DNA of 64,000 bases from a virus (taxonomy: Duplodnaviria > Caudoviricetes). Of this stretch, positions 1-55,544 are shown piece after piece (within the stretch, counting starts at the first letter, position 1; each line of letters begins with the position of its first letter). The notes below the pieces were generated by a model that worked only from the letters and a program-made list of their open reading frames with translations, ran no database searches and was not told where the DNA came from. The DNA lies in the IMG/VR virus record IMGVR_UViG_3300042885_001472, one strand, 5' to 3'. A program made the translations under genes and the position numbers.

Positions 1-486
1 TACTTCACATTCATCAGACCCTTGACGAGTTAAAATTAATATTTCCCCTATATTAAATTGTGTTACATATTCTGTAAAGTATTTAAACCTATCAAGTGAA
101 GTTTTAAATTTATCATTATCTTGTATGTGTGATATACTATCATATTTAAAATTAAGTAAGTAATTTAATTGACAATTACTCGCACTATCTAAAAAATCAC
201 CATATTCTTTTTTCAAATGAAAAACACTATCTTGGTAATTAAGGTAAAGTTTATTAAACTCACGTTCTATAACTTTTAAATCTAAGTCTTTAGATAATGG
301 TGTGTATTTTTTAACTACTGGAGTTCTTTTACGTAAAACTTCCATCGCTTCTTCTATGGTATTAGTATAAAACACACTATCAGGTCTACCAGGAAGGGTT
401 AGGGTAGCTCTATGTTTACCAACTTTAACTTGTGATAATCCCACTAAAGAAACCATCAACATCAGATATACAAATAATTTTTTCAT
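1..486 (-). CDS. Secreted protein, partial (runs off the window); weak CAP/SCP-like resemblance
   Basis: Not in the ORF track. Open frame from ATG at 486: MKKLFVYLMLMVSLVGLSQVKVGK (signal-peptide-like), later SASNCQLNYL..ISHIQ..SLDRFKYF..GEIL. TATCTTTG promoter at 507-514 on minus. Confidence 0.6.
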   Translation of the reverse strand, partial: MKKLFVYLMLMVSLVGLSQVKVGKHRATLTLPGRPDSVFYTNTIEEAMEVLRKRTPVVKKYTPLSKDLDLKVIEREFNKLYLNYQDSVFHLKKEYGDFLDSASNCQLNYLLNFKYDSISHIQDNDKFKTSLDRFKYFTEYVTQFNIGEILILTRQGSDECEV

Positions 487-627
487 AGTAATTGTTTTTA
501 TTAAGACAAAGATAAACATTTATTTTTAATTACCAAACAAAAAGTCAAGTGTTTTAACATTTTTTAACAAATAATTATTTTTCATCAAGTTATTGAATTA
601 ATGATTCTTTTTAACTATATTTAATGT

Positions 628-1621
628 ATGGAGTATAAAACACTAAAAGAACAGTACTATGATTTAGTTCTGGATAAGATTATTGTTAGTCTTGAAGATC
701 TTAATGAGACTGAAAAAACGATAATTGATACTGGATATTATTTGATGATTGAAAAACTTGAAGATATTAAACTATTAACCGAAGAAAATTATAGACTTAA
801 GATTGAAATAGCCAACTTAAAATCGTATCAAGATGATAATGATTATAATGAAGAAGAAGATTAAATAAAAAAATATGAAAATGAAAAGTAAAGAAGAACG
901 TATTTTATGGAAATGTTACGTTGAATTGTTTAAACATTCAACACCATCCGTAGATTTTGATTGGTTAGTGGAGACAGCTCCTACCAATGAGTTCGGTCAA
1001 AAAGAAATTGATTTTATGTCTTATGAGATTGACCCCAAAAAATTTGATGAAATCGTTGATTCAATTCTAACTGAACATAAAGTTAATAAAATGAAGAAAA
1101 AAATGTTTAAAACGACAATTTTATTGGGTTGTTCACCAAAGTACTCAAGTAATGTGGTGAATAGTATTACCACTGAAATTAAAAAATAATATGGAATTTT
1201 TACACATAATTGGTATTTGTCCGGATAGTATATCACATATTGATATTTTGGACATAATTATGGTGAATTATAATGAAATTCAAATAATGATTAGTAAATT
1301 AAAAAACAAATTTAATAAATGATAAATGAAGTTATATTCATCAATGATGATGATCGTAAAAGTGTTACTAAAGTACAACCAAAAACTATTGAAGAGTGGT
1401 GTGACGATTCCTTAAAGAAAGAAGACATTGAAGAGTACGTTAAATACCGTGTCAACTTTGAATTAAGTATTGATAAGGTTAAATTGACATCTAACAGAAC
1501 TACCAAAGAATTTGGTAAAATAGTTTATTTGGGTAAGACTAATAATTATGATACGTTTGTTTGTTATAATGGTATTACCTGGGAATTAATCTATGGTGAA
1601 CTAAATAGTGGTACTTATTAG
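628..1621 (+). CDS. Three small hypothetical proteins (628-864, 875-1189, 1319-1621)
   Basis: Co-oriented, closely spaced ORFs with acidic/lysine-rich composition; no family recognised. Confidence 0.7.
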
Positions 1622-1666
1622 ATTTAATCTTTAGAATTTTTTTACTTAGTCTTTATATTTATTGTT

Positions 1667-1855
1667 ATGAGTAAAAACATTAAAAATTTGGTGAGTAGAG
1701 TTCTTAATGAGAGTATTGACGAAAGAATATACGATATGTTAAGAAAAAAAGAATTTAATACATTTAATCGATATTCTATAACAAAGTGGTTAGTTGATAT
1801 TGGTTTTACTGATCAGGAAGCTTACCATCAAAAACAATTATTAAAAAATTTCTGA
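1667..1855 (+). pseudogene. 5' half of a leader-bearing gene interrupted by the ice-binding-gene insertion
   Basis: MSKNIKNLVSRVLNE leader with TATTTAT 4 nt upstream. After ...TDQEAY the sequence switches to DNA homologous to the 3' end of the ice-binding gene (compare 1821-1874 with 3770-3823). Confidence 0.75.
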
Positions 1856-4043
1856 TTCTAAACTAATCAACACTTTTTATACACAATAAATAGTATAATA
1901 CATTATAAATGAAAAAATTAATACCCTATAAATTTTTAGTTATTACAATTTTGTTTTTGCAAAATGTGTTGCATTGCCAAACTACTATCTTAGGTAGTGC
2001 GGTAAATTTTGTTGTTTTTACAGGAGATGGTGATATCGCAAATACAGGAAGTTCACTTATAGCTGGTGATATTGGTACCAATTTAGGTGGTGTTAGCGGT
2101 TTAGCACCAGCAACATCAACCGTTACAGGAAATACTCATATTGCAAATTCTACTACAAATCAAGCAAAAATAGATTTGATTGCGGGCTTTACACTTTTAA
2201 TTTCTGTCCATGCAACTAACTCAATTCACCCACCTGCTTTTGGTATTGGAGAAACGGTATTACCAGGTATTTATGCCATTAGTGGTGCTGGTTCAGTTGG
2301 GGGTAACTTAACTTTAGATGCTCAAAATGATACAAATGCCGTATTTGTTTTTAGGTTTACGGGCGCATTTAATATTGGTGCAGCGGCAAATATTATATTA
2401 GCTAATAAGGCAAAAATATGCAATGTTTATTGGGTTTCTTATGGAGCAATCGGCATTGGCGCAGCAGCCTTTGTAAAAGGTAATTTTATAAGTAATTCGG
2501 CGGCTGTTTTTGTTGGAGCTACAACCTTGGTTGAAGGTAGATTGTTTAGTATTAGTGGTGCCATTACTTTTGGCCCATCACAATTAAAAATACCCCAATT
2601 ATGTGTTCCATCTTATTTTAGCAATTTTAATGCAACTTATAATTGTTTAGTGAGTGCAAAACCCAAATTTATGTTGTTTACATCAAGTGGTGCTGTTACA
2701 TTTCTTGGTAGTTCAAATTTAACAGGTGATATTGGTACAAATGCAGGAGGTATTACAGGTTATGGAACATCAACGGTTGTAGGAACTTATCATGCCTCAG
2801 ATTCTGTAACAAATCAAGCAAAATCAGATTTACAAACAACTTATGGTTATCTTACAGCTTTACCTGTTACAAACGCATTCCATACACCTGCATTGGTAGT
2901 TCTGAAGTTCTTAACCCTGGAGTATATTCCGTTGCTGGCGCTGGCTCTGTTAATGGTACCCTTACCTTAAATGCACAATGTGATACAAATGCCGTATTTG
3001 TTTTTAAGTTTGGTGGCGCATTTTCAGCTGCTGCCTCAAGCAAAGTAATTTTAATAAATAGTGCAAGAGCTTGTTCCGTTTATTGGATTGCAGAAGGTGC
3101 CATAACTTTTGCAGCCTCAACTACTTTTATAGGTAGTTTAATTTCGCATAACGGGGCTGTTAACATCGATAATTTTTGCAGTCTTGATGGCAGATTGCTT
3201 GCAATGAATGGCGCTATTTCAATTACTACTTCAACTGGGACATCAGTAGGAAATTGTGAAATTAATGAATGCAGTTTTTTGTCAATACAGTTGGTTTCGT
3301 TTAAAGCCAAATGTGAAAATAAAACTATAAAATTAGACTGGAGTACAGCCTCAGAAACTAATAATAATTATTTTTTAATTGAACGAAGTATAGATGCTAT
3401 TACCTGGCAAGTAGCTGCTAAAGTTGAAGGAGCGCTTAACTCATTACGTAATACGTATTATACTTATAATGATTTAAATAATAGTGCGGCACTTTTATAT
3501 TACCGTTTAAAACAGACAGATGTTGATGGGCAATTTAACTATTCACCAATCATTGATGTAAAAAATTGTGCAGAAGATGACACTGAAATATCTGTTTATC
3601 CAAACCCTGCCTACGAAATTTTAAACATAATTGTTAACCAGCCTGATGTAAAAATAGTTTCAGTAGCCATTTATAATATATTGGGAGAAGTAGTTTATTA
3701 TACTGAAAAATATCAATCACAAATTGTATTCGAAAATAAAGTATCAGGCGTTTATTTTCTGCATGTAAACTTACCATCAAAAACAATTATCAAAAAATTT
3801 TTAACCCTAAACTAACCAACACTTGTAATACATAATTATTTGAACAAAAAAATTATAAATGAAAAAATTAATACCCTATAAATTTTTAATTATTGCCATT
3901 TTGCTTTGGCAAAATGCGGTGTACGGTCAAGTAATTAACTTAGGTTCGGCGGCAAATTTTGCGCTCTTTACTGGTAGCGGAGCTGTTGCAAATACAGGTT
4001 CATCTACTATTACTGGCGATATTGGTTCTAATTTAGGCGCTTA
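1820..4043 (+). mobile_element. Captured host-derived DNA segment (tail of one gene copy, one full copy, head of the next) bounded by a GCTTA direct repeat
   Basis: GCTTA at 1820-1824 and 4039-4043. Internal ~1950-bp periodic homology. Codon usage is visibly richer in GCA/GCC/GGC than the flanks. No transposase or inverted repeats. Confidence 0.75.
1909..3815 (+). pseudogene. Ice-binding protein (two DUF3494 domains) with Ig-like domain and T9SS type A sorting domain; single-base frameshift near 2892
   Basis: Signal peptide and DUF3494 motifs (GDIGTNLG, LTLDAQNDTNAVFVF, NVYWV, GRLFSISGAI). The second domain continues in another frame (GSSEVLNPGVYSVAGAGSVNGTLTLNAQCDTNAVFVFKF...DGRLLAMNGAI) and joins ORF 3195-3815, which carries LVSF..DWSTASETNN..YYRLKQTD..YPNPA. 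Confidence 0.85.
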
Positions 4044-4296
4044 TGAGGGATATTCCGGTTATGGTGGTAAACCAGAGATTACTATAACACCAAGTGGTAA
4101 AAATAGGTATGATGTTGAATACACAATTCAGTTTGGAGATACTTTAATCAAACTTAATGGTGAATTAATACCATTTAATGATGGTAGACATATTGATTAT
4201 GAATTTGAGATAGGTTGGTCCCAGGATAAAGAATCTGAAGAATTTTATGATTTTAACTGGGAAATGGTTGAATATCAAATTAAAAGTGAATTATAA
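3859..4296 (+). CDS. Chimeric ORF: signal peptide and N-terminus of a second ice-binding gene fused to the 3' half of the interrupted gene
   Basis: The first ~62 aa match the start of 1909 (MKKLIPYKFL...GDIGSNLGAY), then switch abruptly to acidic unrelated sequence (EGYSGYGGKPEITITP...). Confidence 0.75.
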   Translation: MKKLIPYKFLIIAILLWQNAVYGQVINLGSAANFALFTGSGAVANTGSSTITGDIGSNLGAYEGYSGYGGKPEITITPSGKNRYDVEYTIQFGDTLIKLNGELIPFNDGRHIDYEFEIGWSQDKESEEFYDFNWEMVEYQIKSEL

Positions 4297-4310
4297 TATA
4301 TTTATATTAT

Positions 4311-4877
4311 ATGAAATCATTAATTAAAAAGATATTACAAGAAGTTAGAGTTCCCAGAGAAGAAAGGGTAGAACTATATAAAGATGATAACATTATTGTT
4401 GTTGTTCCTTTAACACATAGAGCTTTACAAAAGTACGCGAGTTTCTGTCAGTGGTGTATTAATGATGATAAACATGAATGGGAAGATTATCATAAAGGAT
4501 TACACGCGATCATCATTCAAAGAAAACCTAAAAAAGAGAGGATAGGTATAAGTGGTCACCCAACTGCGAGTGAAATTGTAACGTTTGAAAGATGGAGTGA
4601 AGGTGGTTACACTTTTAATGATTTTCAAGATATTTTAGGTTACGAATTTGATGGTGAAAATAAGGGACAAGCGATTAAAGAAGCTGAAAAATATTTTTTA
4701 CCATTGATTAAGGATATTGATAATTTCGCCACTAATATAACTTATTATTCACCCACAAATGGTATATATGATATGGAAGATAATAATTTATGGGGTTTTG
4801 ATTTTAAAATATCTGATATACCAAATGTAACCGATGAAGTTATAAATATAATGGATGATTATTTAACTGAAGGATAA
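4311..4877 (+). CDS. Leader-bearing protein with a PLT..A....WC domain related to 40415 and 48584
   Basis: MKSLIKKILQE leader; VVVPLTHRALQKYASFCQWCI resembles VYEPLTREANC..KFCTA of 48584. Confidence 0.7.
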   Translation: MKSLIKKILQEVRVPREERVELYKDDNIIVVVPLTHRALQKYASFCQWCINDDKHEWEDYHKGLHAIIIQRKPKKERIGISGHPTASEIVTFERWSEGGYTFNDFQDILGYEFDGENKGQAIKEAEKYFLPLIKDIDNFATNITYYSPTNGIYDMEDNNLWGFDFKISDIPNVTDEVINIMDDYLTEG

Positions 4878-4878
4878 T

Positions 4879-5704
4879 ATGAACCTAAAAGAATCTATAA
4901 GAAGAATATTGAAAGAAGAAACTGAAGATTTATCATCATTCATAGAAAATATGTTAACTAAAACATTAGTTAATGACAATAAAGATATTTTATGTGGTGT
5001 TAAGGTCATTCACCCCAATCATAGGGAAAGTTTACCAGACGCTTTTGGAAATAATATTAAATTCACTAGTTATAAAGTGACATTCATATTTATTGGGGGG
5101 TATGGGACAAAAAATTGGCCTAAAACACAAAGTGTTGTGGGTAAATACGAGACTATTATGAATAAAGGTTGGGAATTGATTTACGATTATACAGACTTGG
5201 CTGTTGATGTATATTCAACGGAAGTTAAAAAATGTGATTAGTTTTATGAACCTACAAGAATCCATAAGAAGAATATTAAGAGAATCCAGATTTGAAAAAA
5301 TGGGTGAAGAAAGGTATAAATCTTGTTCTATGTCTGATATAACCAGAATGGAAATTATTGATAATTTTTTTAAAAAAATAGAAGAAAATCCAAATTATAG
5401 TATTGAAAAACCTAATTATGAAATGTTAATTGATGATTGGGATGGTTATGATGATCAAGTTTATATTCAAAACTTATTAGATGATAATAAAATTGTTTTT
5501 TATGAAGGATGGGTTGATTCTTGTTGGGAAGCGGTTTATAATAAACCCCAATACAAAGGTATGGGTAAGGAAGAGGTTATTGAAGACATTGTATTAAAAA
5601 GATTCCCAAGAATTGGTGAAGAATTTAATATGGGTTTATTGGATTATGGGTATTTTAATGACGGTGATGGATATATAATGTATGTGATATTTAAGAAATT
5701 ATGA
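4879..5704 (+). CDS. Two leader-bearing hypothetical proteins (4879-5241; 5246-5704, start corrected from 5204)
   Basis: Both begin MNLxESIRRILxE. Confidence 0.75.
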
Positions 5705-6108
5705 ACCTACGAGAATCCATAAAAAGAATATTAAAAGAAGATTATAGTCCAGCCGGTAAAGAAGTTACACCAAACAAAATTGTTATCCACAAATCAACCC
5801 CAATTTTTAGGGAAAGTATTCTAAAAAATGGTTTACAAGTAAAGACTGGTGAATGTTATAAAATATACGTTGGTTGGGGAACCAAGTGTGAACCCGCCAT
5901 TTTCGCTACCAACTCAATAAATAAAAGGGCTTGGTTTGATTCAACATATGATGATGATATTTGGGAAATAAATACAGAAATGATTCCTAACGTTAAGTGG
6001 TACAAAGATAGACATTATGATTCAAAATCAAAACATATTGTAACATTTCAAGATATACCAAAAGAAGCTATAAGATTAATTTATAAAGGTACAGGTGAAG
6101 ATGATTAA
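5701..6108 (+). CDS. Leader-bearing protein, possible ADP-ribosyltransferase-like fold
   Basis: MNLRESIKRILKE leader; IHKST..SILKNGL..AIFATN..IPKEAI pattern resembles small ART/KptA-like domains. Confidence 0.5.
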   Translation: MNLRESIKRILKEDYSPAGKEVTPNKIVIHKSTPIFRESILKNGLQVKTGECYKIYVGWGTKCEPAIFATNSINKRAWFDSTYDDDIWEINTEMIPNVKWYKDRHYDSKSKHIVTFQDIPKEAIRLIYKGTGEDD

Positions 6109-6171
6109 AATACTTTTAACTAATAGTAGGGTTTTACGTTTAGTAAGATATTTATCTTTAAACTTTTTAAT

Positions 6172-6654
6172 ATGAAATACAAGATAACCGAAAGTCAATA
6201 TAGAAGATTAATTAAAGAAAATGTTGATGACATTTTAGATAGAATGTCAGCTGGTGAAAATTTAAGACCTTCCGATAAAAGAAAGATGGACGCTTATAGT
6301 AAATATTTAAATACTGGTGGTAGAGAAAGTGATTTTGAGTACTCAGATCACCCAGAGTATGTTGAAAAAGAGGGTGAAGTTATTAAATCTACTTTAGCTG
6401 ATCAACCCATAGAATTTATATTTTCTGAAGAGAATGAATTGGAAGATGGTATCATTGAGTACTCTGGTAAAATATGGTTTGGTGGTAATCAATATATTGG
6501 TGTGATAGCGACAGATAAAAGTGGTTATTTAATTGATTACGATTTTTATGATGTAGATACTCCGGATGAAAGGTTACGTTATGTGATTGAAGGTTTGGAA
6601 CACGAACTTGATAATTTTTTTCAAACAGAGGTAATACCTACCCTACAGAAGTAG
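6172..6654 (+). CDS. Leader-bearing acidic hypothetical protein
   Basis: MKYKITESQYRRLIKE leader; GATATTTAT upstream. Confidence 0.75.
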   Translation: MKYKITESQYRRLIKENVDDILDRMSAGENLRPSDKRKMDAYSKYLNTGGRESDFEYSDHPEYVEKEGEVIKSTLADQPIEFIFSEENELEDGIIEYSGKIWFGGNQYIGVIATDKSGYLIDYDFYDVDTPDERLRYVIEGLEHELDNFFQTEVIPTLQK

Positions 6655-6655
6655 T

Positions 6656-7282
6656 ATGAAATATTTAATAACAGAATCACAATATAATTTATTACTAGAA
6701 CAAATTTCTGGTTTGGATGGTTTAATTGATAAAATATCTCAAACCTATAAGGAAATTGGTGAAAGTGATAAAAAACAAGAATATATTGATATGATTGATA
6801 AATTCATATCTGATTCTGGTGTTAAGAATATATTGGTTGAAGAAATCAAAATGGGTCTTGGTTTATCATTATCTGATAGGGTTATTATAAATACTAAAGC
6901 TTTCTCATTAACGTTACCAATGTTAACGTATGTGATTTTTCACGAAATAGCTCACCAATATCAATTTAAAAAATATGGTGCGGAAAAAATGTATGACTGT
7001 TATACTGGTGAAATAACTACAACACAAGGGGCTGAATTAATGAAATATATTGAAGAAGTGGCCGATGATTTCGCTTTAAGAAAGATTAGACAATTAGTTA
7101 AAATGGGATTTCCTATTAACCCTTCAGAACTTAGTGGTATTAAACCTATGTATAAAAATGTACCTTTATATCATTTTGTTTCATTAGTAGAAAATGTTAG
7201 GGGTATGATTGAGAATAAAAATATAACTACACCGGATAAGATTAGTGAATTCTTTTACAACTGGGTGAAAATTAATTTGTAA
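6656..7282 (+). CDS. Leader-bearing zincin-like metallopeptidase
   Basis: FHEIAHQYQ (HExxH) with a downstream EEVADDFA glutamate motif, as in ImmA/IrrE-type peptidases. Confidence 0.65.
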   Translation: MKYLITESQYNLLLEQISGLDGLIDKISQTYKEIGESDKKQEYIDMIDKFISDSGVKNILVEEIKMGLGLSLSDRVIINTKAFSLTLPMLTYVIFHEIAHQYQFKKYGAEKMYDCYTGEITTTQGAELMKYIEEVADDFALRKIRQLVKMGFPINPSELSGIKPMYKNVPLYHFVSLVENVRGMIENKNITTPDKISEFFYNWVKINL

Positions 7283-7286
7283 GATA

Positions 7287-7351
7287 AACGGTTTAGGACC
7301 GTTGTAGTTTCGGCTACAAGAAAGGTGTCAGCTCGCTACTAGACACCTTTC
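7287..7351 (+). ncRNA. Three consecutive hairpins (cis-regulatory RNA and/or terminator)
   Basis: AACGGT-TTAGG-ACCGTT; TGTAGT-TTCG-GCTACA (UUCG loop); GAAAGGTGTC-12 nt-GACACCTTTC. Confidence 0.55.
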
Positions 7352-7601
7352 ATATTAATACATCTAACCAATATCTTTTAAAGGTTATCCACAAACCAAA
7401 TATTTTTACTTGTAATTTACATCTATAACTTTCATAACTCTTAGGTCCAATGTCATTTACTGACCAAGACAATGTCACATAATTAGTATTTTTATGGATT
7501 CTTCTAAACAACATATTTTTTTTATTTAAATATAGTAAATATTTTTCAAATAAAAATTGTTTTATAGAAAAAAAATGTTTATTTTTGTAAAAAAATTATA
7601 T

Positions 7602-7943
7602 ATGAAAAAATTTTTATTATTAACATTAATGATAATACCTTTATTATCAACCTCACAAAATGAATTAAGAAATTTTGAAACACTTAAAGTAACCTTTGAT
7701 GATACCATTACCAATAAATATTTTCTTTACAAAATATCATTTGATAACATAACGACACTAGAGTTATCAAAAACGATTATACCAGAGTTAATGGATATTT
7801 TTAAATCCAAACCCCATTTTTTTGTGGAACTAAGTGAATACAATATAATATCTAATATTGATGTAGGTGATTTTGAATTGTATCAAATGTTTAATGGTAA
7901 ACATTATAAACCCACTTACTTTAGAAAAGAAAATATAAATTAA
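7602..7943 (+). CDS. Secreted hypothetical protein (start corrected from 7557)
   Basis: MKKFLLLTLMIIPLLSTSQ signal peptide; TATTTTTG promoter at 7580-7587. Confidence 0.7.
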   Translation: MKKFLLLTLMIIPLLSTSQNELRNFETLKVTFDDTITNKYFLYKISFDNITTLELSKTIIPELMDIFKSKPHFFVELSEYNIISNIDVGDFELYQMFNGKHYKPTYFRKENIN

Positions 7944-7967
7944 TAATAACCCATAAAACCAAATCTA

Positions 7968-8267
7968 ATGAGTAAATCAAAAGGAATTAAACAACAGATT
8001 GAATTAAACCCTAGAGGGTTGACTAAAAGAGTTTATAACAGAATTCTTAAAATGAATAAATTAAAGGGATTATCTGATATCAAGACAACTTCAGGTAAAG
8101 TCATCAATGTTGGTGATAATTTATTGTTTGGTGTTCTTTTAGAACCGGAAAATGTTTCTAGGGTAGTTTCCTTTTTACCGGAAGAATATGGTACAATTTA
8201 CAAGTATGGTGGTAGAACATCCAAAACAAGATATCCATTCTTAAAATTAAAAACTCCCTCAATTTAG
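7968..8267 (+). CDS. Basic hypothetical protein
   Basis: Intact ORF followed by hairpin CCTC-AATTTA-GAGG and a T-tract. Confidence 0.65.
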   Translation: MSKSKGIKQQIELNPRGLTKRVYNRILKMNKLKGLSDIKTTSGKVINVGDNLLFGVLLEPENVSRVVSFLPEEYGTIYKYGGRTSKTRYPFLKLKTPSI

Positions 8268-50336: not shown

Positions 50337-51596
50337 TTACTTACCTATTTTTATTACAATCTTATCTTTAACCTTATCAAATGTTATTTTAATAACAGTA
50401 TTTTCTTTATCTTCATTCCTTAAAATCTCTTCTGAAATAGGATCTTCAATAAACTTTTGAATAGCTCTATTTAAAGGTCTAGCCCCAAATTTCTCATCAT
50501 ATCCTTCTTTACCTAAATATTCTTTAACTGAAGAATTAATTTTTAACGTATAACCAATTTCTTTACTACGTTTTTCTAGTTTTTTAAGTTCAATTTCCAC
50601 AATTTTATGAATATCTTCTTGTCTAAGTGAATTAAAGATAATGATATCATCTAACCTATTAATAAACTCTGGCGCGAATTTCTTTTTTAACTCCTTATCA
50701 ATAATTGATTTTTTTTCTTCCTCAATAACCACACTTTTACTTTGTGTTGAGAATCCAATACCAGTACCAAAATCTTCTAAATGTCTAACACCAATATTAG
50801 ATGTCATAATGATCAAACAATTTTTAAAATTAATTTTTCTACCTAAACCATCAGTCATTTGACCATCATCTAACATTTGTAATAAAATGTTAAAGGTATC
50901 TGGATGAGCTTTTTCAATTTCATCAAAAAGGATAACACTATATGGTTTTCTTCTAACCTTTTCAGTTAATTGTCCACCATCTTCATGTCCCACATATCCC
51001 GGAGGGGCTCCGACTAATCTTGATATCGCGTGTTTCTCCATATATTCACTCATATCAATTCTAATTAAAGAATCTTCTGAATCAAACATATATTCAGCCA
51101 ATAATTTCGCTAAATAAGTGTTGTGTGATAAAATACCATTAGTATAATATCTACGATTAGAACCTTCTTTTAATTCAAGGTCATACATTACTTCTTCATA
51201 ACCTAAATTGGTTAATTGTGTAACCATTGAATTTAGAGGTTCACCATTATCATTATATTGTGTTATAATTATATCACCTAATTTTAAATCTTTAACAAAA
51301 ACTTCATCAAAATTAATTGGATTAACTTCATTGTGTTTAAACACAATATGATTATCAGCACATTTAAGCTCTTTTCCATCACTTAATTTAAGATGATATA
51401 CTTCATAGGGTATTGTTTTATGTAAAGCTTCTATGTCAACAAAACCATCATCAGTTAATACTTCGTAATCATTAATTTTGGTTGTTTTAGTAATCTTTTT
51501 TAAAGATTCTAATTCATGTTTATCAAATAATAAAACATTATCTAATTTCTCAAGTCTTTTTTGTATTTCCTCTACCCTACTCATTTTATTTTCCAT
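50337..51596 (-). CDS. clpC: ClpC part 3: IntC-2 (159 aa, 51120-51596) plus the rest of AAA+ D2 (260 aa)
   Basis: CADNH block B and YYTNGILSHN|T terminus; then YLAKLLAE, RIDMSEY, GAPPGYVG, LFDEIEKAH, GIGF (ClpP-docking loop), GARPL. Own TATATTTG promoter at 51609-51616. Confidence 0.93.
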   Translation of the reverse strand: MENKMSRVEEIQKRLEKLDNVLLFDKHELESLKKITKTTKINDYEVLTDDGFVDIEALHKTIPYEVYHLKLSDGKELKCADNHIVFKHNEVNPINFDEVFVKDLKLGDIIITQYNDNGEPLNSMVTQLTNLGYEEVMYDLELKEGSNRRYYTNGILSHNTYLAKLLAEYMFDSEDSLIRIDMSEYMEKHAISRLVGAPPGYVGHEDGGQLTEKVRRKPYSVILFDEIEKAHPDTFNILLQMLDDGQMTDGLGRKINFKNCLIIMTSNIGVRHLEDFGTGIGFSTQSKSVVIEEEKKSIIDKELKKKFAPEFINRLDDIIIFNSLRQEDIHKIVEIELKKLEKRSKEIGYTLKINSSVKEYLGKEGYDEKFGARPLNRAIQKFIEDPISEEILRNEDKENTVIKITFDKVKDKIVIKIGK

Positions 51597-51616
51597 ATTT
51601 TATTTTTACAAATATA

Positions 51617-53098
51617 CTATTTTTCATTTAGAAAAACAATGCATTTATTTATTATTTCTTGTTTATTATTTTTATAATCATATTCACTAATATGTAATAC
51701 TTGATAACCAGATTCTAATATCATTTTATCTCTTTTTTCTTCTCTTAATGAATTTTCTGGTGTTGACCTATGATAGTAAGTACCATCAAACTCAATAATT
51801 TTTCCCTTAACTAAATCAATAAAATCTGGTAATATTACACCATTTAACAATGATAATCGATATTCATTATTTTTACCACTATCATCAATGTCACCTTTAT
51901 TAAATGTCGCAAAGAATATATTATCGTTTTTAATACTTGGTTCTGTTTCTAATATACCCCAAAATAACTGTTGTGATATTTTACTAAAATTAGTTCTTTT
52001 ATAATTAGTTAACCACTTATTTTGTCTTTCATTAAATCTTTTTAATCCGTCTTTTTCACCATATTTCTGGAGACAAATTTCTAAACTAAATGTTGTTTGT
52101 CTTTCAGTTACTTTTTCTTTAGATTGTTGATACGTGAATCCTCTATTAACCCAATAACTTATATTAGATGGTAATAACCTACTTTCATAATCAATATGTT
52201 TTAAAGCATTTAATTGATTGTTTACTACCATAATTTTAGCATCTTCTTCAGAGTATCCTTTATCCACCCAAAACTTAACCTGGGATGGTGTTTGACATAT
52301 TTTATTAATCTCTTCTTCAGAATAACCCAATTTTTGTAAATTATCTTTAGAAACTACAAACCTATCTTTAACCATCATAGAATTTTTACTTTGTATTTTT
52401 GAAATATTACTTTTAGCTTCTTCTTCAGAGTAACCTTTACTAACCCAACTATCAACACATAATCTATTAGACTTGACTATAACATCACTCAATTCTTTTA
52501 GTTTAACTTCAGCTATGTCTTTAGGTAGATACGCATTATATAAATTAGATTTAGAATATCCTTTAGTTTCACAAAATTTATTTGAACACCCAGTAATTTT
52601 ATAATAAAATAAATCTGATATATTTTTTATATTCTTTTTAGTTAATATTAAGTCTTCACCACAAATATTACATTTTGGGCGTCTGTTAGATATAAATTCA
52701 CCACCTTTAAATATTATTTTAATACTTTCATTAAATTCAATTTTATTTTTTTCATTAAGTTTGGTTTTTACACCAATATTAGACCTTTCTTTAGTTATGT
52801 TTGAAATCTTGTTTTTACCATATTCTTTAGACCAACCGCGTTCTAACCAAAAATCAAGTGTTAATAGATTAGATTTTTTAAACCCAAACTTACTCGGTAA
52901 CCATCTATTAAATCTAACCCATTTTATAAGACCATCTTGTGTCAACATATCTTGATAAATTAAATTTATTTTTTCAGTTATTAATTGACTTTCAAAATTA
53001 ATTTTATTGTTAATATTGACCAAATATTCTGTGAACTCATTAGATGTTTTAAAAACTTCTTTAACTTCTTGCCTTTTTCTATCTTTTAAAAATTGCAT
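51617..53098 (-). mobile_element. Free-standing putative homing endonuclease (Vsr/DUF559-like PD-(D/E)XK) between the IntN-2 and IntC-2 genes
   Basis: C-terminal PDF..IIEFDGTYYH..RD..GYQVLHISEYD; five W..[KR]G[YWF]S.E repeats; CxxC..CxxxxC motif; GATATTTAT upstream. Confidence 0.75.
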
Positions 53099-53183
53099 AT
53101 TTATTATGTTTAATAATAAATATCACGAAGTTTTGAAAAAGACCTATTTGTTGGAAAATATTTTTAGGGTGAAGTGGGATGAG

Positions 53184-54662
53184 TTAGTGTTTTATCCTAT
53201 CTATTAATTCATTAATATCAATTTTTTCAACTAAATTAGTACTTTTATTTCTTATAACTATCTGAGTATGAGATGTAAAACATTTACCAACTCCTGTTGG
53301 ACCAAGGAAGATGAAGCTTCCTATAGGCCTTTTTGGGTTCTTAATACCCACCCTATTCCTTCTAAGAGCTTTCGCAATTTTCTCTACCGCTTCGTTTTGA
53401 CCGATAACTTTATCACCCAATTCTTTTCCCATATCTAAAAGTCTTAACCCCTCTTTAGTTGAAACTTTATTAAGTGGGATACCGGTCATCATAGAAACAA
53501 CTTCCGTTATTGATGATTCATCAACAAGACTTCTTTTATGGTTTAATTGTACCTCCCATAATTTTTTAGTTTTTTCTAAATCTTCATTTAGGATTCTTTC
53601 CTGATCTCTCAGTAAAGCGGCCTTTTCAAATTCTTGTGTCTTAACAACTGTGAGTTTTTTCTCCTTTAATTCAACAAGTTTCTTTTCTAATTCAACAATT
53701 TCTTTTGGTGGTTTAACAACAACTTGAGCTCTAGCTCCAGCTTCATCCAAAATATCAATCGCTTTATCTGGGAATTCTCGATCTGTAATATACCTTTCAG
53801 CTAACTTAACACATTCTTCAATAGCTTCTTTAGAATACTCAACTTTATGGTAATCTTCATACTTACCCTTAATATTATTTAAAATTGTTATAGTATCTTC
53901 TGGGGATGTTGGGTTAACCATAACTTGTTGAAATCTTCTAGTTAAAGCCCCATCTTTTTCAATGTTCTCTCTAAATTCATCTAATGTAGTCGCCCCAATA
54001 ATTTGGAGATCTCCTCTAGCCATCGCTGGTTTAAAAATATTTGACGCGTCAAGTGATCCGGAACTATTTCCAGCTCCAACAATTGTATGTAATTCATCAA
54101 TGAATAAAATTACATCTCTATTACCAACTAATTCGTCAAGAATACTTTTCATTCGTTCTTCAAACTGACCACGATATTTTGTACCGGCCACTAATGAAGA
54201 AAGATCTAAAGAAACAATTCTTTTACCTATTAATGTTCTTGGGGCTTTACCCTCTTTAATTTTTAACGCTAAACCCTCAATAATTGATGTATTGTGTGAT
54301 AAAATACCATTAGTGTAGTAACGTCTATTTGAATTTTCTGTTAATTCAAAGTCATACATAACTTCTTCATAACGTAAATCATTGATTTCAGAAATAACGC
54401 TAACAATAATTTGACCATTACCATCATCGGTTAAAATTTCATCACCAATATTTAAATCCTTAACAAAAACTTCCACAAAATCTTTATAGAAAACAATATG
54501 GTTATCAGCACATTTTAATTCTTTACCATCAGATAATTTAAGATGATACACTTGATATGGAATTGTTTTATGTAACTTTTCCAATTTTTTAAACCCATTA
54601 TCAGTTAAGATACTGAAGTTACTCATATCAAATGATTTTGTAAATTTTTTTAATTCTTTCAT
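53184..54662 (-). CDS. clpC: ClpC part 2: IntC-1 (124 aa, 54291-54662), rest of D1, UVR/M domain, D2 Walker A (336 aa), then IntN-2 (32 aa, 53187-53282)
   Basis: LSHN|TSIIEGLA, LVAGTKYRGQFEER, LFIDELH, IGATT, PDKAIDILDEAG, UVR helix, FIFLGPTGVGK|CFTSHTQIVIR. Confidence 0.93.
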   Translation of the reverse strand: MKELKKFTKSFDMSNFSILTDNGFKKLEKLHKTIPYQVYHLKLSDGKELKCADNHIVFYKDFVEVFVKDLNIGDEILTDDGNGQIIVSVISEINDLRYEEVMYDFELTENSNRRYYTNGILSHNTSIIEGLALKIKEGKAPRTLIGKRIVSLDLSSLVAGTKYRGQFEERMKSILDELVGNRDVILFIDELHTIVGAGNSSGSLDASNIFKPAMARGDLQIIGATTLDEFRENIEKDGALTRRFQQVMVNPTSPEDTITILNNIKGKYEDYHKVEYSKEAIEECVKLAERYITDREFPDKAIDILDEAGARAQVVVKPPKEIVELEKKLVELKEKKLTVVKTQEFEKAALLRDQERILNEDLEKTKKLWEVQLNHKRSLVDESSITEVVSMMTGIPLNKVSTKEGLRLLDMGKELGDKVIGQNEAVEKIAKALRRNRVGIKNPKRPIGSFIFLGPTGVGKCFTSHTQIVIRNKSTNLVEKIDINELIDRIKH

Positions 54663-54719
54663 ATATTTTATTTTTTAGATTCGTTTTTTCCCTTTTATTA
54701 TAAATGGTAACGTATTTAA

Positions 54720-55544
54720 TTAGGGATTAGATAATGTTTTCAATAATTCTTCAATAGTAGTTTTTATCACTTCACCTGTTAAATCATTTCTCATAACAAC
54801 CTCAGTATCAGAACAAATACACTTACCAACACCCGGGTCGCCTATCAAAACGGGATTATTTTTCTTACGTCTACTCAAAATTTGAGCAACTCTTTGAATC
54901 TCATCATCTCTACCAATAACTGGATCAATTTTACCTTCTTCAGCTGATACCGTAATATCTTTAGAAAAATTATCTAAAATTGGTGTTTTACTACTAGTTT
55001 TAGTGTACTTCTTTTTTTCTGGTTCAATTGGACTACTTTCTTGTTCGTCACCTTCATAACTCGCCATAATACTTAATTCTTTAATTTTTTGTTTAAAACT
55101 ATTATAATCAACCTCAAAATCATTTAATAAAGAAGCTATGTCAGATTTAGAATTTAACATAGACAAAATCAAATGATTTAAATCAATAAACTCTGACTTT
55201 AGACTTACCGCCTCATTATCTGAATTATTAATTATTTCTGTACTATCCTTATTTAGGGGTAATATGTTATACTTTTTTTGTACTCTAGGTACGATATTTT
55301 GTTGACAATTAAATTGTAACTTAACTATCAATTTTTTAGTATCAACATTCATACTCACTAATGTTTTAACCCCCATATTATTATTATCTCTAAGTATTGA
55401 TAATAAGATATGTTCAGGTCTCACATTCACATCATTAAATTCTTTCGCGGTATCAAACGAAGAGTTCATAATTTGTTTCACTTTAGGTATTACTCTTTTC
55501 ATATTGATTAAGTTTAGTATTTTTTTTCTTAAAAGTCCAATCAT
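54720..55544 (-). CDS. clpC: ClpC part 1: Clp N-terminal repeats, D1 Walker A, then IntN-1 (33 aa, 54723-54821)
   Basis: [47 protein letters not shown]|[11 protein letters not shown]. Confidence 0.93.

Follow-up and report, generated by a model that had tools for sequence, protein, structure and literature searches.

Genes with the 'ice-binding-like' domain PF11999 have been reported on viral contigs among the viral operational taxonomic units of the Central Arctic, where they were proposed to be cryoprotective auxiliary genes (PMC11515562). Here we describe a slice of a tandem array of ice-binding protein (IBP) genes with type IX secretion system (T9SS) sorting domains, which lies inside a small phage gene (the target gene) in the IMG/VR virus record IMGVR_UViG_3300042885_001472 (Duplodnaviria; Caudoviricetes). 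The whole stretch of DNA that was analyzed, 64,000 nucleotides (nt) in length, is referred to as the window, and all positions are given on it unless another contig is named. As in the polar viromes, a PF11999 gene is found on a phage genome from a freezing habitat and shows an affinity to Flavobacteriales-type sequences. Unlike those cases, the acquisition is resolved to the base by relatives with an empty site and by both junctions, the acquired DNA is a slice of an array rather than one gene, and the gene is frameshifted, so that the reading as an auxiliary gene fails.

That illegitimate recombination lets phages capture host genes is textbook knowledge; rare events of this type are assumed to be the source of such genes, and the raw event is seldom caught before selection tidies the product. 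The insert resembles phage morons in being foreign DNA without a mobile element, present in one lineage only, absent from close relatives and joined with little or no homology. Classic morons, however, are intact transcription units located between genes, whereas this insert interrupts a gene, has partial genes at both ends and carries a broken central gene. What is unusual here is the resolution, with both junctions, the empty site, a matching type of array and an unrefined product, and not a new kind of system. The reading that we favor, to which we assign a probability of about 85%, is that a piece of a host IBP array was captured into a phage gene by illegitimate recombination and is now a non-functional passenger.

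The insert, its empty site and its junctions

A large protein collection searched with the phage-derived C-terminal 83 residues of the target gene product yielded eight clusters of homologues, 139-140 amino acids long and 78-87% identical to the query, and the N-terminal halves of these eight intact proteins match window 1667-1822. The homologue contigs L017-L022 are syntenic with the window: genes of 78, 104, 43 and 100 amino acids are followed by the target gene and then by a gene of 188 amino acids. The nucleotide identity of the left flank reaches 97.2% (window 29-1822 versus L017) and 97.15% (L019), within a range of 87-97% for L017-L022. The blastn alignments to these relatives break at 1822 and restart at 4039 (L019) or 4041 (L017 and L020), and the empty site reads GAAGCT-ACGGAG-GCTTATGAG in L019 and GAAGCT-ACAGAG-GTTTATGAG in L017. 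As judged from these alignments, the insertion is the derived state, the empty-site relatives having kept the uninterrupted gene; the search for an empty site in related phages, which the sequence-only reading had suggested as a check, was therefore borne out by an intact gene in full synteny.

The sequence of the empty site also sets the limits of the event. It places the insert at 1823-4038 (2216 nt), with six nucleotides (ACGGAG) replaced, and gives an intact gene of 139 rather than 136 amino acids. The sequence-only reading had noted tandem repeats, the motif GCTTA at both ends (1820-1824 and 4039-4043) and the joining of two frames after removal of 2219 nt, all of which are present in the sequence. 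Its restored 136-amino acid gene finds no counterpart, since the intact homologues are 139-140 amino acids long in all eight cases, and its 5-bp GCTTA microhomology has to be revised: six nucleotides were lost, the GCTTA on the right is native to the phage, and that on the left consists of the native GCT and two donor bases. With copy 1 as a proxy for the donor copies, the microhomology between donor and target comes to about 2 nt on the left side (CT) and 1 nt on the right side (G). The locus thus combines an empty site in close relatives with junctions that lack extended homology, the features of an insertion by illegitimate recombination. It does not have those of a transposon or insertion sequence: no transposase was matched among the neighboring open reading frames (ORFs) scanned, as the sequence-only reading had also stated, no meaningful terminal inverted repeats were found at the ends of the insert, and the target became 6 nt shorter with no duplication.

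As shown in Table 1, the insert contains the last 14 codons of one gene (copy 0), the whole of a second (copy 1) and the first 60 codons of a third (copy 2). The array structure can be observed as two imperfect direct repeats, 1818-1917 versus 3767-3866 (76% identity, spacing 1949 nt) and 1897-2087 versus 3847-4037 (75% identity, spacing 1950 nt). The sorting-domain codons of copy 0 start at 1822 (LPSKTIIKKFLILN, read from the sequence) and end with the stop codon TAA at 1864-1866. The 5' part of the target gene reads out of frame into the insert as far as a stop codon at 1853-1855, which leaves an ORF of 62 amino acids (1667-1855), and the head of copy 2 is joined in frame to the C-terminal half of the target gene in an ORF of 145 amino acids (3859-4296).

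Copy 1 belongs to the PF11999 family, with two ice-binding domains (Pfam, E 7e-34 and 2e-26) that score 117.7 bits in the N-terminal part and 93.6 bits in the C-terminal part, at a cut-off of 28.7. A T9SS sorting domain, PF18962 (Por_Secre_tail), was identified at residues 234-302 of the frame 2895-3815 with 42.5 bits (cut-off 27); the signal peptide was assessed by eye only. The closest solved structure is the two-domain IBP of PDB 5UYT (E 5e-55, residues 24-320), named 'Ice-binding protein' by its depositors, which we take to be IBPv of Flavobacteriaceae bacterium 3519-10. Both proteins have two tandem PF11999 domains; unlike 5UYT, the family found in the window adds a linker and T9SS sorting domains (about 636 amino acids), and the copy in the window is broken inside domain 2.

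Table 1. Features of the insert and of the interrupted target gene (positions on the window).
Feature	Position	Strand	Evidence or remark
Target gene, N-terminal 52 codons	1667..1822	+	98.7% nucleotide identity to the intact gene in L019; blastn alignments with L017-L022 end at 1822
Copy 0, 3' end	1823..1866	+	~80% nucleotide identity to copy 1 tail and spacer, 3771-3858
Spacer between copy 0 and copy 1, 42 nt	1867..1908	+	Within direct repeat; L024 spacers comparable, 39 and 47 nt
Exact 37-nt repeat	1902-1938 = 3852-3888	+	Spans start codons of copies 1 and 2
Complete IBP copy 1	1909..3815	+	Signal peptide, two PF11999, linker domain, PF18962; frame broken
Frameshift site, 1-nt deletion	2893..2894	+	TT in place of the Phe codon of the conserved P-A-F-G motif
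Spacer between copy 1 and copy 2, 43 nt	3816..3858	+	Read from the sequence and the direct repeat
Copy 2, first 60 codons (signal peptide and start of first IBP domain)	3859..4038	+	75% nucleotide identity to 1909-2087
Target gene, C-terminal 85 codons and stop	4039..4296	+	78-87% amino acid identity to intact homologues P0099-P0106

The target gene itself has no match in Pfam or PHROGs, and a search of IMG/VR with its two halves gave no matches; the IMG/VR relatives of the neighboring genes are just 61-69% identical at the amino acid level and are not syntenic at the target locus. The C-terminal half is 88-90% identical to its relatives, which are 84-88% identical among themselves, and a decay of this half was rejected, its divergence lying within the range seen among intact relatives. 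Two residues, K in TLIKLNG and S in GWSQDK, replace the E and F found in all eight intact homologues, and these substitutions at otherwise invariant positions may point, if faintly, to a constraint that has relaxed since the disruption.

Two further observations were made around the target site. The empty-site relatives have an extra gene of 80 amino acids (L017:5435-5677), with no match in Pfam or PHROGs, between the target gene and the 188-amino acid gene; the window has only a spacer of 14 nt there (4297-4310), which makes this a second presence/absence difference beside the insert. On the plus strand of the window GCTTA occurs 10 times, with about 60 occurrences expected from base composition alone.

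Affinity of the insert to bacterial tandem arrays

The homologues of the captured IBP are of bacterial type, many of them with a length of about 636 amino acids, a pair of PF11999 domains and a sorting domain for the T9SS, and the source names, where given, are those of Bacteroidota (Crocinitomicaceae, Parvicellaceae, Salibacteraceae, Flavobacterium and Ferruginibacter). The closest cluster, P0108/P0218, is 57% identical at the amino acid level to copy 1 in the first 328 residues and 54% in the remainder. It is encoded on the lake metagenome contig L024 as the middle gene (copy B) of a head-to-tail IBP/T9SS array, in which genes of 627, 636 and 637 amino acids, separated by spacers of 39 and 47 nt, are followed by an IBP of 1328 amino acids. 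This array is similar to the insert in its domain layout, its period of about 1.92-1.96 kb, its spacers (42-43 nt in the window) and its low GC content (31%). It differs in that the proteins are only 54-57% identical to those of the window, so that it is to be seen as a relative of the donor rather than the donor.

A maximum-likelihood tree of 27 proteins was built with copy 1 translated across the frameshift and an X placed at the break. In it, the phage copy and the middle gene of the L024 array are sisters (support 99/96), and the third array gene is the sister of this pair (99/99), which is nested within a set of bacterial paralogues. The first 60 residues of copy 2, its head, are 60% identical to the third array gene (copy C) and 53% to the middle one. 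Since copy 1 thus pairs with the middle gene, and copy 2 comes nearest to the third, the donor most likely had an orthologous array, and the fragment most likely spans the end of its first gene to the start of its third. The two tails (copies 0 and 1) are 80% identical and the two heads (copies 1 and 2) 76%, a divergence like that between neighboring L024 genes, and a duplication made inside the phage was rejected because the copies are too divergent. On the strength of these affinities, the insert most probably comes from a bacterial tandem IBP/T9SS array, with L024 as a relative of the donor and the donor species unsampled. The host-type array slice inside a phage gene that the sequence-only reading had described therefore stands, with empty-site relatives, agreeing assemblies and a bacterial array of the same period behind it; of its account of a whole copy with a tail and a head, the content was confirmed, but the complete copy is frameshifted, which had been missed.

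The donor itself did not come to light in the bacterial genomes in which it had been expected. Species-representative genomes gave 49-51% amino acid identity at best, an exact 25-mer scan of metagenome contigs gave no matches and a profile scan of them 47% at best, and neither of two protein searches, the second of which read through the frameshift with X at stops and with full-length proteins eligible, returned anything above 57%. No IBP was found in ten IMG/VR relatives of the phage or in a scan of viral contigs. The capture had also been called recent; this holds in the sense that, by the divergence of the flanks, it would be younger than the ~3% that separates the window from the empty-site phages, and no closer date follows from a donor, none being nearer than 57%.

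It is important to mention that composition does not mark the insert as foreign. Raw GC content in 300-nt windows is 0.29-0.40 in the insert versus about 0.21-0.30 just outside, a rise that is due to the Gly/Ala/Thr-rich protein. At third codon positions the GC content (GC3) is 0.16-0.20 in the insert, 0.21 on average in the phage genes and 0.14-0.20 in the L024 genes. GC composition was rejected as a sign of foreign origin because the GC3 of the insert equals that of the phage genes, and the comparison of GC and codon usage that had been suggested as a check consequently yielded no foreign mark.

In two lake runs, X3 and X24, contigs align to the conserved stretch 2752-2831 of the window at an identity of at least 85% and diverge beyond it, leaving a loose end at 2831. 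These contigs are from another IBP gene of the same lakes, which is possibly closer to the donor lineage.

Frameshift, function and competing explanations

The complete copy of the insert is broken by the 1-nt deletion listed in Table 1. The ORF 1909-2970 (353 amino acids) has a signal-peptide-like N terminus, a complete first PF11999 domain (profile positions 4-203 of 208) and half of the second; the true frame resumes at 2895-3815 with the rest of the second domain and the sorting domain, and the downstream ORF of 206 amino acids has this sorting domain and no signal peptide. The deletion splits domain 2, so that the uninterrupted frame of PF11999 proteins is lost, and the signal-peptide-like N terminus and the sorting domain, which belong together in T9SS cargo, are on different frames. 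The 353-amino acid product therefore ends without the T9SS sorting domain, which is present in all close homologues. Neither a slippery heptamer nor a long homopolymer, as signals for recoding, was found at 2885-2900. Every contig compared has the frameshift, and where the Logan contigs of the lake runs extend over this position, none shows an indel variant. A search of 5.8 billion protein clusters, for which full-length proteins were eligible, returned no intact allele. The insert is flanked on both sides by phage genes and so lies on a viral genome, as a viral auxiliary gene would, but such a gene is to be intact and expressed, and the captured gene is not intact. A working cryoprotective gene is unlikely on these grounds (a frameshift in every contig and no intact allele in the databases searched), and the possible cryoprotective auxiliary gene of the sequence-only reading was given up.

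The course of events that we propose is the following. During infection, a 2216-nt piece of the bacterial host chromosome would have been cut out of head-to-tail paralogous IBP genes with T9SS sorting signals and joined to the phage genome by illegitimate (non-homologous) recombination, with no transposase or site-specific recombinase involved. It would have landed in a dispensable accessory gene of 139 amino acids, where it replaced 6 nt with no more than 1-2 nt of microhomology per junction. The whole gene within the piece is broken by the 1-nt deletion, which parts the Sec signal peptide and the first ice-binding domain from the T9SS sorting domain, and the piece would have been fixed as a non-functional passenger in one clonal lake phage lineage. 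Of this account, the sequences show the insertion with its empty site and two junctions, the frameshift and the affinity to bacteria; how the recombination took place, that the host was the donor and that function was lost are deduced from them. Judged from the sequences, the insert is most likely a neutral or mildly harmful passenger of this kind.

Some points weigh against this reading. No collection searched contained a donor above 57% amino acid identity, and since no closer donor was found, the host as the donor and the recent date are what we infer. The donor copies 0 and 2 at the junctions were modeled on copy 1, which makes the microhomology lengths approximate. Moreover, the 353-amino acid product retains a signal peptide and one complete ice-binding domain, and an insert that is unchanged across many samples is also compatible with weak selection.

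Among the competing explanations of the locus, an assembly chimera, in which phage and bacterial reads were joined at short repeats, carries practically no weight, although the exact 37-nt repeat does split the k=31 Logan graph at 1902-1938 and 3852-3888. This repeat is the only place at which the graph breaks when the Logan contigs of four lake runs are aligned to the window, and each of the junctions, 1822/1823 and 4038/4039, lies inside single Logan contigs in two runs. In run X1 the three graph pieces have equal depths of 9.17, 9.14 and 9.18; the depth of the 37-nt unitig, 16.9, is about double that of its flanks, as two copies per genome would give. In all, 18 contigs encode the exact 353-amino acid truncated product; they stem from Logan, two JGI samples and an ENA assembly with k141 contigs. 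Three pipelines independent of one another thus gave identical contigs, and those made at k=141 cross the 37-nt repeat. Over as much as 6970 nt, the four contigs that were aligned do not differ from the window (100% identity). The insert junctions are not an assembly artefact, and a chimera, which the sequence-only reading had named as its own refutation, has been disposed of. The contigs of four runs contain no empty-site joints, and as only contigs were searched, the absence of the empty-site form from these runs is unproven. It is highly improbable, if slightly less so than a chimera, that the array is ancestral to the phage group and was precisely deleted from the relatives: nothing in the data speaks for it directly, the deletion would have to rebuild an open gene of 139-140 amino acids with three extra codons in several diverged lineages, no IBP is present in the ten IMG/VR relatives or the viral-contig scan, and the phage copy is nested in a radiation of bacterial paralogues. 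Better founded, yet still unlikely, is an ancestor with a 136-amino acid allele (...GAAGCTTATGAG...) that was entered at a 5-nt GCTTA microhomology or with a 5-bp target duplication. GCTTA does flank the insert, the donor tail would by analogy with copy 1 read ...CTTACC and so have CTTA in common with the second phage GCTTA, and the near-repeat GAAGCT/GAGGCT in the empty site could delete 9 nt by slippage. However, the three extra codons (TEV, TEA, TDI or VDV) are present in each of the eight intact homologues, two of which have a flank identity of about 97%, no 136-amino acid allele was found, and two events would be required where one is enough.

The remaining alternative accepts the capture and disputes the lack of function. 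In it, the 353-amino acid product would be a predicted periplasmic IBP that protects infected cells in ice-covered lakes, or the 145-amino acid fusion would be used somehow. The first PF11999 domain is complete behind a signal-peptide-like N terminus, all contigs compared have the same insert sequence, half or more of the stretch is present in at least 20 freshwater or lake-water runs released in 2016-2024, and a cryoprotective auxiliary role has been proposed for viral PF11999 genes (PMC11515562). Against this, the frameshift halves the second domain and strips off the sorting domain, the sequence at 2885-2900 has nothing that would permit recoding, the target gene was destroyed as well, conservation is uninformative in a single clonal lineage, and GC3 gives no sign of adaptation in either direction; we regard a working product as doubtful. 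An extended form, in which one of these products is made in infection and gives Bacteroidota ice-binding activity in the periplasm in seasonally frozen lakes, with jumbo phages as a vehicle for the spread of DUF3494, would be a somewhat longer shot. The horizontal spread of DUF3494 genes is in itself well known.

The phage, its host and the meaning of the insert

Besides the interrupted gene, the window encodes a head maturation protease, a lysozyme, an RNA ligase, a DNA methyltransferase, a Clp/Lon-type ATPase in pieces and two tRNAs. Relatives of the 188-amino acid gene that adjoins the target gene are located on ten IMG/VR contigs of up to 318 kb, on one of them with a major head protein beside it, and the contigs with the truncated IBP ORF are up to 294,686 nt long. 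In blastn, none of 50,697 phage records matched window 1-8000.

Some features of the host can be deduced from the phage. Shine-Dalgarno cores upstream of the 82 ORFs of at least 100 amino acids are scarce, with a 5-mer in none and a 4-mer in one, below the background. Shine-Dalgarno sites are largely absent in Bacteroidota, and the scarcity therefore fits a Bacteroidota host independently of the insert. The sequence-only reading had pointed to a Bacteroidota host and a cold habitat; a Bacteroidota host and a lake habitat are plausible for this phage.

Several other observations concern the window and its relatives. The Clp/Lon-type ATPase (phrog_4871), on the minus strand at 50337-55544, is spread over the ORFs 54720-55544, 53184-54662 and 50337-51596, with the ORF 51617-53098 between the latter two. 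Short N-terminal motifs of the types MNLxESIRRILKE and MKYLITESQY are common to many neighboring small genes that are otherwise unrelated (window 1667-7282 and beyond); the disrupted target gene is one of the genes that share such a motif, which is also found in the relatives L001 and L008. The latter, a related IMG/VR phage, encodes at L008:1521-2603 (minus strand) a protein of 360 amino acids with a signal-peptide-like start, which has no match in Pfam or PHROGs and is 46% identical at the amino acid level to the linker domain that separates the T9SS sorting domain of the window IBP from its second IBP domain. To go by this protein, other phages of the group may carry host-surface-type domains.

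Through the insert, an uncultured lineage of jumbo phages is linked to a lake Bacteroidota host that has a low GC content and a T9SS. With three genes that are partial or broken, and a target gene that was destroyed, the insert offers a concrete and datable example of how auxiliary genes begin, and suggests that such captures can become fixed in a natural population while they are non-functional. It also calls for caution, as a PF11999 match on a viral contig is not automatically a cryoprotective auxiliary gene.

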